Assembly (NCBI GenBank): GCA_016933055.1 | Contig: JAFGBS010000021.1 | Coordinates: 90,001-122,000, forward strand | Origin: Promethearchaeota archaeon | GTDB lineage: Archaea > Asgardarchaeota > Lokiarchaeia > Sigyniarchaeales > Promethearchaeaceae | Direction: 5' to 3' | Length of the DNA: 32,000 nucleotides | Part shown: one piece after another, positions 9,594 through 15,445 of the stretch | Position numbering within the stretch: position 1 is the stretch's first letter | Layout: every line of letters starts with the position of its first letter | The notes under the pieces: model-generated | What the model was told of the DNA's origin: nothing | The model's database searches: none | The model's input: the letters and a program-made list of their open reading frames with translations, nothing else | Made by a program: the position numbers and the translations under genes

Positions 9594-9630
9594 TTCTCTT
9601 TTTTTTTCGTACTTTTTTCTTTAACCTTTT
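9594..9630 (+). terminator. Oligo-T archaeal-type terminator after the protease array
   Basis: TTTCTCTTTTTTTTTCGTACTTTTTTCTTT begins 12 nt after the stop codon. Confidence 0.55.
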
Positions 9631-9670
9631 AGCTTATTTTACAAGCTGAATTTTTACTCAGATACATCAC

Positions 9671-9862
9671 TTTGTTCTCCGAAATAACCATCTGGAATAG
9701 CCAATCTGCTAGTTGGCTCAATTTTCCTTAAATAGCAACCTTGGATCTATATATCATAGAACTAAAAAACCCGAACACGGAGGTAAAAAATCGATGAACG
9801 ATTACATGATGGAAAAAATTAATGAATACAAAATAAAAGAAAACCGAAACCGAAAATGGTGA
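9671..9862 (+). repeat. 192-bp dispersed direct repeat, copy 1
   Basis: Aligns without gaps to 13357-13548 with 14 mismatches by manual count (~93% identity). Confidence 0.95.
9794..9862 (+). CDS. Candidate 22-aa microprotein MNDYMMEKINEYKIKENRNRKW (copy 1)
   Basis: GGAGGT SD 9 nt upstream of ATG, TATA-like TTAAATA (~9728) and CTATATATC (~9747), T-rich tract after TGA; duplicated. Confidence 0.55.
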   Translation: MNDYMMEKINEYKIKENRNRKW

Positions 9863-10158
9863 AATTCTTCTTTTTTCTAATTTAATTCATTTTGTTTTGA
9901 ATAGTACTTCTGTTAGTTAGATCTTCTATTTTTTTGAGAGTTTCCAACACAATGATAATTCCTTTCATAAATGTCATTATGAGAAAAGTAATCATTTTGT
10001 CAGTGGATTTGTTATGATAATTAAACAAGTGGACTAATTATTCACCAATTATGATTAAGAAATTCACTATTTTTGAAATAGAATGATTTCATTTAATAAA
10101 GGTTCATCTCTTTTCTTACATAATTCAAAATTGATTTAAGTTTGAAAGAGTGTTCAAA

Positions 10159-10845: not shown

Positions 10846-11355
10846 TTAATTCTTCTTTAGCATGGTTAAGAAATGTGTTAATTTATCAGAAAATTCCACG
10901 GCATGATCCTCAAAAATGAAAATTCTATTCCTCTTATCTCCCGATTGTTCCGTAATTACTAAGTACTTATCCCCTTTGCTTGTGTTTTTTATTTCAAAAT
11001 AATAGATCCGTGCCCCTGCATGTAATTTCGAATCATTTCCTTTAAATTTGGAACCATAATCCTTGGATTTCCGATCAAATCCTTTGGACTTGGGATCTGG
11101 TTTGTGATCAAATTTCAGTTTTTTCTCTATCTTCAAATCTGCTGGAACTTTATCTAACACTTTGAGATTAGTTCCATTGAAAAATTTCCCTTTTTGCACA
11201 ATTTTGCAGGAAATGATATCTCCTTCTTTCATTTTCGTCCCAATGTCTTCTTTCTCGAAAAATCCTACTGAATTATCGCATAATTTGAGTTGTAAGTATT
11301 TTTCTCCGTTTTTTCTCTCGCGAATCTCGACTTTTTCTACTTTATAATTACTCAC
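10846..11355 (-). CDS. Nucleic-acid-binding protein: N-terminal OB-fold-like domain fused to a PUR (Pur-alpha-like/DUF3276) repeat
   Basis: C-terminal SKLHAGARIYYFEIKNTSKGDKYLVITEQ..RNRIFIFEDHAVEF follows the PUR repeat pattern. N-terminal RERKNGEKYLQLKLCD..KEGDIISCKI resembles OB folds. GTG start with GGTGA SD. Confidence 0.7.
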   Translation of the reverse strand: MSNYKVEKVEIRERKNGEKYLQLKLCDNSVGFFEKEDIGTKMKEGDIISCKIVQKGKFFNGTNLKVLDKVPADLKIEKKLKFDHKPDPKSKGFDRKSKDYGSKFKGNDSKLHAGARIYYFEIKNTSKGDKYLVITEQSGDKRNRIFIFEDHAVEFSDKLTHFLTMLKKN

Positions 11356-13295: not shown

Positions 13296-13356
13296 ATAAA
13301 AGTCATTTAACCATCTAGCTAATCCACCTAACTCTTTCCTTACTTGGATTCGATCC

Positions 13357-13548
13357 TTCGTTCTTCGAAATAACCATCTGGAATAGTTAATCTGCTAGAT
13401 GGCTCAATTTTCCTTATATAGCAACCTTGGATCTATATATCATAGAACTAAAAAACACTACCACGGAGGTAAAAAAACAATGAACGATTACATGATGGAA
13501 AAAATTAATGAATACAAAATAAGAGAAAACCAAAACCGAAAATGGTAA
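13357..13548 (+). repeat. 192-bp dispersed direct repeat, copy 2
   Basis: Ungapped match to 9671-9862. Confidence 0.95.
13480..13548 (+). CDS. Candidate 22-aa microprotein MNDYMMEKINEYKIRENQNRKW (copy 2)
   Basis: GGAGGT SD, ATG 13480, TAA 13546-13548, followed by a T-rich tract. Confidence 0.55.
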   Translation: MNDYMMEKINEYKIRENQNRKW

Positions 13549-13897
13549 GTTATTTTTACTTTCTTCTTCTTTTTTGCATTAACAACGCACTTACTTTCTT
13601 GAAATAAGGATTCAAACTCAAAGTCATATACTAATTGTTGAATTTTGTCTTTGCCCTACTACGTACAAAAAACTACGCAAAAAGCCATCTCGAGATAGAT
13701 CTTGGATAACATTATTTACTTTGGTAGTTTTTTCCTCACCCAAGAGTTGAAAATGCTACGAATGCCTTTTCTTTAACTGTTCGATGTCCGATAGATCGTT
13801 ACACTCAGATAAACTGATGCAATTCACTTCTTTAAGAAGTTTAAGTTCGCAATCCGATCGATGGGTTATTCGTATCATTTTTCCTTGTTCTTTTTCT

Positions 13898-15310
13898 TCA
13901 CTTTTGATATAACTCAGGATGTTCCGTGTGTATTGGTATTACATGATTTGGACGAACATCTCGAATTATTTGATGAATTTCCTTGCCTGAGGCGTGCCCA
14001 GATGCATGTGCATGATATTCTGGAATGCCAAATCGATTTAACCAGTTAGATTTGCGCTCTTCATCGAGCTCCATATCATCGGTAAATGGTTCACATGAGG
14101 ATTTAATCCAAATGGCACCTTTGGGTTGAATATCAATTAAATGTTTAATTTCCCACATGTTCATCGAAACTACATAGTGTTGTGGATTTTCAACGAGATC
14201 TCGAACTGTAATTGCATTTTCCCGATGGATGAAATCTTGCTCCCATTTGAAATAATCTTTCGATATTTGATGATCCGTGCAACCATCCTTGCATAGTAGC
14301 CCCCATCCCTTATTTGGAACTAGTATTTTCACTTCATCTATCGCAAACGGACTGATATCACCCAATAGTTCTATAAGGTATGCTAATTTTAAATTAACTG
14401 CGAACTGTCGTTGATTATCTCGTGCAGAGTCATATATCGATTTCACTCGATCCAAATCTCGAATGGGATGTTCTACAAACACTAAACCTTGGTTGTTGGA
14501 GACTAATTTGCTGATTTCTTCCCGGACTTTCAATTCGCCAATAGAATGCATATCTTTAATTCGTGTTCCTTCCATCAATAACCATTCTGGATTTGCAGCT
14601 TTTACTTTCTCGACGAAAGCGTGACTATATTCTCCATGATATCCGTGAAAGCGAATATCTCCGCTATAAGCTAAATTCCCCTCGTCGCTATAAATGATAA
14701 ATCCACAAGCACCAGGTAAGGAATGATCCACCAGACAGCATTCTATTTCCAGAGAGCCTATCTTTACTTTACCAACATTCGTTCCGGAACACGAGTCCAT
14801 AATATGAAAGGTACGGTCATGCACATATTCTCCGTGTTTACGGTCGATTCGAGACCACTCTCCTTTTTTATTTATGTAGTGTTTATAGGTTTCACATACA
14901 GTTACCAAATCCTTAAAACCCCCACTACCAGTTTCTTCTAATGCTTGCAATATGAGTTTGGTGGCGTGAGTACAATAAATTGGAATATCCCAACGGAGAA
15001 AATGGATATATTGCGCATGATCTGCATGAGCATGGGATAAAAATAACGCATCCACAGAGCGATCCTCTTTTGGTCGACCCATATGCTCGACATAATCTTC
15101 CCGATAGATTCCTTTAATATCTGGAAGCAGGCCCATTTCGAAAAAATCCTTTAATCCATCACATTTTCGGGGTTGCAGGAATTCGGAAAAATACATGCCA
15201 GTTGTGTTAAAACTCATTCCAAAATCCATCAAAATTCTGGTCCCTTTATGCTCGATAAGTACCTTATTCCCCCCGATCTCATTTCTTCCTCCTAAAACGT
15301 CGATCTTCAT
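13898..15310 (-). CDS. MBL-fold beta-CASP family nuclease (RNase J/CPSF-like)
   Basis: GGRNEIGGN, MDFG, SHAHADH, VDHSLPGA, YSGDIRFHG, MEGT, HASGHAS, IPIHTEH. ATG 15310 (GGTG SD) preferred to the track's 15343. Confidence 0.9.
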   Translation of the reverse strand: MKIDVLGGRNEIGGNKVLIEHKGTRILMDFGMSFNTTGMYFSEFLQPRKCDGLKDFFEMGLLPDIKGIYREDYVEHMGRPKEDRSVDALFLSHAHADHAQYIHFLRWDIPIYCTHATKLILQALEETGSGGFKDLVTVCETYKHYINKKGEWSRIDRKHGEYVHDRTFHIMDSCSGTNVGKVKIGSLEIECCLVDHSLPGACGFIIYSDEGNLAYSGDIRFHGYHGEYSHAFVEKVKAANPEWLLMEGTRIKDMHSIGELKVREEISKLVSNNQGLVFVEHPIRDLDRVKSIYDSARDNQRQFAVNLKLAYLIELLGDISPFAIDEVKILVPNKGWGLLCKDGCTDHQISKDYFKWEQDFIHRENAITVRDLVENPQHYVVSMNMWEIKHLIDIQPKGAIWIKSSCEPFTDDMELDEERKSNWLNRFGIPEYHAHASGHASGKEIHQIIRDVRPNHVIPIHTEHPELYQK

Positions 15311-15445
15311 TTTGCTTTCACACCTAATTTGCATATTTCTCATTGTTTTTTATTTTTATATTTTTTTTTATGGTTTTTTACAGTTATTTGTATACCTTTC
15401 AGAGTTCTTCCTTTGTATGGTATATTTTAGCATCGGAATAGTATA

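Follow-up and report, generated by a model that had tools for sequence, protein, structure and literature searches.

Of all parts of archaeal genomes, the small proteins have been charted least. Among short peptides of other organisms, the phenol-soluble modulins and leaderless bacteriocins have an amphipathic or hydrophobic character, and their export depends on dedicated transporters whose genes lie close by. For archaea, small proteins have been described in Methanosarcina mazei, where sP26, a protein of 23 amino acids encoded by an spRNA, binds glutamine synthetase (bioRxiv 10.1101/2020.05.06.080432). Furthermore, a Ribo-seq catalogue of the small proteins of this organism (PMC11456600) as well as pairs of spRNAs and asRNAs (bioRxiv 10.1101/2025.10.28.685009) have been reported. 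Repeated small ORFs are found in the type I toxin-antitoxin loci Ibs/Sib, Ldr/Rdl and Zor/Orz (survey PMC2887945). In the literature searched, no small proteins were found described for Asgard archaea.

Here, we describe a unit of 192 nt that is present twice in a window of 32,000 nt (C30:90001-122000 of a 3.76-Mb assembly with 35% GC) from a Promethearchaeota archaeon. This unit is a member of a microprotein gene family that is real, unannotated and specific to the lineage, and whose control region is strikingly constrained. It is likely that each copy is a stand-alone gene for a cytoplasmic microprotein of 22 residues, and that the family is young and confined, so far, to one Lokiarchaeial genus.

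The likeness of the unit to the spRNAs of M. mazei is one of description. Both appear as stand-alone, very short archaeal transcripts, each with just one ORF (~22-23 codons) overlooked by standard annotation, their products are thought to bind a larger partner (here by analogy), and their distribution is at the genus or species level. Unlike the spRNAs, the units described here occur as four to five paralogs per genome that share a conserved upstream module of ~140 nt, and no antisense RNA partner as in the spRNA/asRNA pairs is evident. With the type I toxin-antitoxin loci the family has in common several chromosomal copies, some of them in tandem, ORFs in the range of ~20-35 codons, conserved non-coding flanks and a patchy, narrow distribution missed by annotation. 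On the contrary, type I toxins are hydrophobic membrane peptides of bacterial hosts, whereas the peptides of this archaeon have GRAVY values of -1.2 to -2.1, and no antisense or divergent RNA gene is supported here. Phenol-soluble modulins and leaderless bacteriocins are similar in having ~20-45 residues, no leader and several paralogous copies; they differ in that the hydrophobic moment is 0.07-0.41 here and that no transporter is linked to the copies.

The significance of the family lies in its four to five copies, taken as co-regulated, with a control region under stronger constraint than the coding part. It is a test case for how microprotein genes arise, spread and are homogenised by gene conversion in a lineage near the origin of eukaryotes, and likewise for targeted peptidomics, start-site mapping and the search for the regulator of the upstream module. 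With a distribution limited to one genus, the general significance is moderate.

Copies, distribution and history of the unit

Copies A (9671-9862) and B (13357-13548) align without gaps over 192 nt, and re-alignment gave exactly the 14 mismatches counted in the initial annotation (92.7% identity). A repeat of this quality is far above chance (blastn E 1e-78 within the genome). Left of the tract, a likeness of ~59% extends as far as 9620 and 13306, respectively. On the right, the homology stops at the stop codon, TGA in A and TAA in B, and each stop is followed by a non-homologous T-rich tract of its own, T6 for A and T5 plus T6 for B. The TATA-like box, the GGAGGT and the ORF of 22 codons are present in both copies as well (Table 1), so that the initial description of the pair was accurate in all these points. 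The encoded peptides are MNDYMMEKINEYKIKENRNRKW for copy A and MNDYMMEKINEYKIRENQNRKW for copy B, and the coding differences are limited to two sites.

Table 1. Sequence features of copies A and B, with positions counted in the window
Feature	Position	Strand	Remarks
A upstream block 1 (TTTAACCnTTTAGCTwA)	9620..9637	+	kept in 12/12 full-length upstream elements (alignment A4)
A T-rich spacer, poorly conserved	9638..9673	+	59% A vs B, 48-83% other pairs; outside the high-identity tract
A conserved non-coding core (block 2, 8-nt variable stretch, block 3)	9674..9734	+	77-95% identity in every paralog pair
A block 2 GTTCTCCGAAATAACCA	9674-9690	+	part of the conserved core
A block 3, palindrome AGCCAA-N8-TTGGCT, ends in TATA box	within 9674..9734	+	part of the conserved core
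A TATA-like box CTTAAATA	9727-9734	+	end of block 3
A block 4 (TTGGATCTATATAATCATA type)	9735..9759	+	conservation ends here; predicted transcription start ~9755-9759
A Shine-Dalgarno GGAGGT	9779..9784	+	9 nt before ATG
A 22-codon ORF and TGA	9794..9862	+	frame, length and stop position as in 14 homologs; purifying selection
A T-rich tract, T6 at 9871-9876	9865..9878	+	likely archaeal oligo-T terminator (predicted function)
B upstream block 1	13306..13323	+	alignment A4
B conserved non-coding core	13360..13420	+	92% identity to A; 103 bits against model R1
B TATA-like box CTTATATA	13413-13420	+	end of the B core
B promoter-proximal block	13421..13445	+	predicted transcription start ~13441-13445, reasoning as for A
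B Shine-Dalgarno GGAGGT	13465..13470	+	9 nt before ATG
B 22-codon ORF and TAA	13480..13548	+	blastn/tblastn family match
B T-rich tract, T5 at 13553-13557, T6 at 13570-13575	13550..13575	+	not homologous to the A tract

The unit had been taken for a pair, which turned out to be too few. Blastn and tblastn searches of the assembly for copy number and context revealed five intact ORFs of 22 codons in varying contexts: A and B in the window, the tandem pair C and D on contig C32, which lie 209 nt apart, and E on contig C28. A sixth locus, F (C19:12766-12908), consists of the upstream element only, without an ORF. Among the genomes compared, a single further one belongs to this genus, the MAG Promethearchaeota archaeon AMARA_1. 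It contains four intact ORFs, two of which form a tandem with the same arrangement as C and D, plus one decayed copy. These copy numbers are minima since the genomes are 91% (this one) and 76% (AMARA_1) complete. Five further loci were detected on metagenome contigs by a scan with an exact pattern from the known copies, which is blind to diverged members. Four of these have intact ORFs, one of them together with an intact tandem partner, giving five ORFs, whereas the remaining locus runs into the end of its contig and is truncated. This results in a total of 14 intact homologous ORFs from two genomes and four metagenome contigs.

Outside the genus, the peptide profile gave no match with E up to 0.01; this search covered 398 further Asgard genomes from 84 other genera. 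The matches of a peptide HMM run over the order (154 genomes) and the phylum (400 genomes) were confined to the own genus. At the DNA level, a search of 60 relatives yielded beyond the genus just short A-rich chance matches.

The decayed copy of AMARA_1 is the ortholog of E (C66:17394-17456). Its flanks are syntenic, but a loss of ~190 nt has removed the upstream element entirely, the start codon is gone and the frame contains a TAA; it is a recent pseudogene of the family. Such a decay after loss of the promoter is the behavior of a gene. According to the initial annotation, conserved flanks around a broken ORF would have spoken for a non-coding repeat; the frame is open in all 14 homologues, and the decayed ortholog has lost its upstream element too.

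The history of A and B appears to be different from the initial proposal that they were copied as a unit. From block 2 to the stop codon, they share 91-96% identity, while block 1 and the spacer are 59% identical, like any two paralogs. Furthermore, the B spacer has 76% identity to the spacer of the metagenome copy M47. This mosaic points to a gene conversion tract and not to a fresh duplication. Read from the alignments, the near-identity of A and B is a conversion tract between old paralogs 3.7 kb apart, which ends where the homology ends. One syntenic slot, located between an array of genes for trypsin-like proteins and a DUF3276 gene, always holds a unit. The slot is occupied by A in this genome, by a tandem of C-type and D-type in AMARA_1 and on contig L046, and by M47 on contig L047, and both orientation and content vary among the occupants.

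Reading frame and selection on the peptide

All 14 copies retain the ATG, the frame and the position of the stop over 22 codons (one copy 21 or 22), even though the stop itself is TAA, TGA or TAG. The ORFs are 49-96% identical across copies, and the frame is kept even at 49-70% DNA identity. When the alignment columns of the 11 copies tested were shuffled, all frames were open in 12 of 20000 trials. Given the A-rich sequence, a single shuffled copy was open in only 11-21% of cases. The other two forward frames of the 11 copies contain 14 and 22 stops. The diversity at codon positions 1, 2 and 3 is 0.30, 0.26 and 0.48, the third position being the most variable. Pooling of four phylogenetically independent ortholog pairs gave a pS of 0.53 and a pN of 0.09, corresponding to a ratio of 0.17 (Fisher p ~1e-9).

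This comparison of substitutions shows purifying selection on the 22-residue peptide. The initial annotation had suggested an unannotated small-protein gene and had added the caveat that selection on the peptide was not shown, which arose from the small number of coding differences between A and B, two sites in all. The suggestion is borne out by the 14 homologues that keep the frame, and the caveat is lifted by the pooled pN/pS. As far as comparative genomics alone can tell, this is near-proof of a translated product of 22 residues.

An accidental open frame in a non-coding dispersed repeat or a miniature mobile element would be a different explanation. The unit is dispersed with discrete borders, related genomes carry it at varying positions and in varying orientations inside one and the same syntenic slot, and one copy comprises the upstream part only, all of which would fit to such an element. 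On the other hand, frame, length, start, stop and ribosome-binding site are conserved in 14 copies in spite of the low DNA identity, and synonymous changes are in clear excess. Moreover, neither terminal inverted repeats nor target duplications were consistently seen on reading of the flanks, the copy number is limited to five per genome, and two patterns searched in viral contigs gave no match to the family. With the column shuffles and the pN/pS values, a non-coding repeat appears largely refuted, and we assign it a very low probability.

The peptide encoded by the microprotein gene has the consensus MNDYMxEKIxEYKxKExRNRKW (alignment A3). Here, M1 and Y4 are invariant and N2, E7 and K8 are nearly so, followed by a basic tail and by Trp, Tyr or Phe at the C-terminus in 13 of the 14 copies. 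The peptides are very hydrophilic, as the GRAVY values given above demonstrate, contain no hydrophobic stretch and carry a net charge of +1 to +4; the helical hydrophobic moment is low to moderate. Hydrophilicity, charge and the modest hydrophobic moment indicate that the peptide is not a membrane toxin or a pore former. Profile searches against Pfam and NCBIfam at E up to 10 gave no family, and the best match of a profile search against the PDB (E 1.1) was not significant. By analogy with known archaeal microproteins, binding to a larger protein or nucleic-acid partner is the most likely mode of action.

The upstream module and the transcription unit

An extra feature of the family is the non-coding module of ~140 nt, composed of the TTTAAATA box and ~90 nt farther upstream. 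Twelve elements align over ~147 nt (alignment A4). They begin with block 1, followed by a T-rich variable spacer, block 2, eight variable bases, block 3 and block 4. In block 3, the palindrome AGCCAA-N8-TTGGCT runs into TCAATTTTCTTTAAATA; block 4 has the sequence TTGGATmTATATAATyATA, and 3' of it conservation resumes only at the ribosome-binding site. The identity from block 2 to the TATA box stays at the level given in Table 1 in every paralog pair, while the ORF falls to 49-70%. In ortholog pairs with ~45% difference at synonymous sites, the core differs by just 8-10% (90-92% identity). This indicates that the core is under selection as a nucleotide sequence.

Whether this selection acts on DNA or on RNA is reflected in the pattern of changes. 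No codon periodicity of three bases was observed in the core of the aligned copies, and RNAalifold predicted no pairs within it. The arms of the hairpin AGCCAA/TTGGCT pair in 89% of cells, which is no better than in shuffles, and show no covariation. Further, the hairpin is broken in copies C and F, and the ORF of C is still intact. In Rfam, no match was obtained for the window at the gathering threshold and none of note at E up to 1 for three further loci. Since covariation of an RNA structure is missing, the module most likely acts as DNA, that is, as a promoter plus regulator sites. Blocks 3-4 may then be read as the core promoter and blocks 1-2 as sites for a regulator on the DNA.

Some observations do not fit easily to this reading. 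A near-invariant stretch of ~90 nt upstream of the TATA box is unusually long for an archaeal promoter and counts against it. Also, since element F persists without an ORF, an independent role of the element is conceivable, and a promoter-only reading leaves the complementarity of UCUCCG in block 2 to CGGAGG of the ribosome-binding site (6 bp, -8.8 kcal/mol) unexplained. These points would be accounted for by a module of a small RNA and a microprotein resembling type I toxin-antitoxin systems. Here, the core would be a trans-acting RNA of ~65 nt consisting of a single-stranded conserved seed (GUUCUCCGAAAUAACCA), the hairpin AGCCAA/UUGGCU and a U-tract, and pairing of UCUCCG with CGGAGG would control translation by masking the ribosome-binding sites of all paralogous mRNAs. 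This is also in line with the stronger conservation of the core compared to the ORF, with the sequence T4CT3 that follows the hairpin ahead of the TATA box, and with a multi-copy, partly tandem and narrow occurrence as in type I loci. In contrast, a promoter-like box is not found at the right distance 5' of the core, where block 1 does not resemble a TATA box and is separated from the core by a T5-6 run. The missing RNAalifold structure and covariation as well as the broken hairpins speak against it as well, and so does the hydrophilic peptide, which is unlike type I membrane toxins. The pairing comprises just 6 bp, and own and cross duplexes have energies of -8.56 and -8.42 kcal/mol (permutation p 0.28), without co-variation. 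We therefore consider such an RNA module improbable; if it existed, it would represent the control of a microprotein by RNA in an Asgard archaeon, with copy F as an orphan regulator.

Several other candidates in and around the module gained no support. Pairing of ACC-A-UCUG or UCUCCG with the ribosome-binding site displayed no co-variation. A reverse-strand ORF through the core (YLKKIEPTSRLA...) is uninterrupted in 10 of 12 copies, yet it shows neither a start codon nor periodicity, and a short one (MVISEN...) is disrupted in several copies. The site motif ARCCAWYTRG, which is repeated, is inconsistent across copies.

The exact 18-nt consensus of block 1, TTTAACCATTTAGCTTAA, has one further occurrence in the genome, located at C11:95236-95253 on the minus strand just upstream of a gene for a winged-helix regulator (C11:94741-95211, minus). 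This gene diverges from a gene of 340 aa, whose promoter weakly matches the element model (20.5 bits), a match that is essentially a likeness in the TATA region and was discarded. The winged-helix protein may be a candidate regulator of the microprotein promoters.

The signals for transcription and translation are arranged in a similar manner throughout the family. A TTTAWATA box lies ~60 nt before the ATG in about nine intact copies that have the long upstream element (A, B, C, E, G1a, G1b and M44-M47); tandem second copies and G1c have a different upstream sequence. Genome-wide, leaderless ATGs peak 20-24 nt after such a box, and this spacing places the predicted transcription start of A and B at the positions listed in Table 1, where the upstream conservation ends. 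The Shine-Dalgarno sequence GGAGGT is located 7-10 nt 5' of the ATG in all copies, with GGAGAT in copy D. In the whole genome, GGAGGT-N5-10-ATG occurs only 149 times, of which 41 cases precede ORFs of more than 100 aa. A motif this rare at the right spacing suggests efficient translation.

Termination at oligo-T is established for archaea. Most copies have a run of T5-T8 within ~20 nt of the stop (in a few it is shorter or further away) in non-homologous flanks, and these runs likely fit archaeal oligo-T terminators. The mRNAs predicted in this way have 125-131 nt and 44-52% A, and their fold z-scores near 0 are no better than those of shuffles.

A short, stand-alone and multi-copy transcript would also suit a dual-function or purely regulatory small RNA of ~125 nt, which acts mainly by base pairing with other mRNAs and for which the ORF is secondary. 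Small RNAs that encode small proteins are indeed described in M. mazei (bioRxiv 10.1101/2025.10.28.685009). However, the constraint expressed by the pN/pS of 0.17 is on the protein, with synonymous sites near saturation in some pairs, the 5' leader is conserved at the ribosome-binding site only, and neither a stable fold nor an Rfam match is seen. Such a function appears even less probable than the RNA module discussed above.

Similarly, the short ORF with its strong ribosome-binding site and three Met among the first six codons could act in cis on the gene behind it, as a leader peptide or a regulatory upstream ORF. In AMARA_1, copy G1c does lie ~100 nt ahead of a co-directional gene resembling a membrane transporter; it is the one copy there with a co-directional gene downstream. 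On the contrary, a convergent gene or a tandem partner lies behind B, C/D, E, G1a, G1b and M47, the next co-directional gene is 290 nt away from A, and its orientation relative to the unit is reversed in a related contig. In addition, the stop codon is directly followed by T-runs. The convergent genes after most copies make a leader-peptide role unlikely, indeed highly so in our estimate, and argue for a stand-alone transcription unit of ~125 nt, which the gene order shows to be independent of downstream genes.

Taken as a microprotein gene, the unit would work as follows. A strong archaeal promoter would start the transcript ~22 nt 3' of the box, and the ~90 nt of constrained DNA upstream probably carry sites for a dedicated regulator, so that all paralogs would be switched together. 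The resulting RNA of ~125-130 nt is predicted to be A-rich and unstructured, with a 5' leader of ~37 nt that contains the near-perfect Shine-Dalgarno sequence, rare in this genome, and to end at the oligo-T tract just 3' of the stop. Its product, very hydrophilic and slightly basic with the conserved N-terminus M-N-D-Y-M-x-E-K, the basic tail and the C-terminal aromatic residue, would most likely bind a larger partner, either a protein or a nucleic acid, in the way of known archaeal microproteins.

Neighboring genes and further observations

The genes upstream of A and B are co-directional, end at 9582 and 13295, respectively, and both encode a hydrophobic helix followed by basic residues at the C-terminus. 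The initially noted context of surface-protein genes is valid for A and B. As a trait of the family it does not hold, since the upstream neighbor is an rps2-like gene for G1b and a divergent gene for C and E.

The gene upstream of A is the third of three tandem paralogs (window 4532-9582, plus strand) for proteins of 530-536 aa with a trypsin-like peptidase, a CARDB domain and a C-terminal membrane anchor. Two such genes are present in the same-genus relative and at least one on a metagenome contig. On the other side, window 10846-11355 (minus) encodes a protein of 169 aa with DUF3276 (PF11680; E 2.9e-6), which we take to be a relative of the Pur-alpha nucleic-acid-binding fold. This gene adjoins the microprotein unit in the relative as well as on two metagenome contigs and is one gene away from A here, the synteny being kept. 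From synteny alone, the DUF3276 protein and ribosomes may be considered as candidate partners of the peptide. Converging on copy B, window 13898-15343 (minus) encodes a protein of 481 aa with a metallo-beta-lactamase fold and a C-terminal RMMBL (RNA-specificity) domain, a combination that makes it similar to ribonucleases of the beta-CASP type.

Directly behind the ORF-less element F, a GC-rich stretch of ~170 nt is located (C19:12950-13120), which reaches up to 62% GC in this genome of 35% GC. It was not found in 40 related genomes and has no Rfam match. Within the genome it has one paralog (C2:4768-4930, reverse strand) with ~71% identity. Both share a long hairpin, CTACGk...CCACGGC / GCCGTGG...mCGTAG, with a compensatory change from T-A to G-C and a variable loop, and the stretch may be a new structured RNA.
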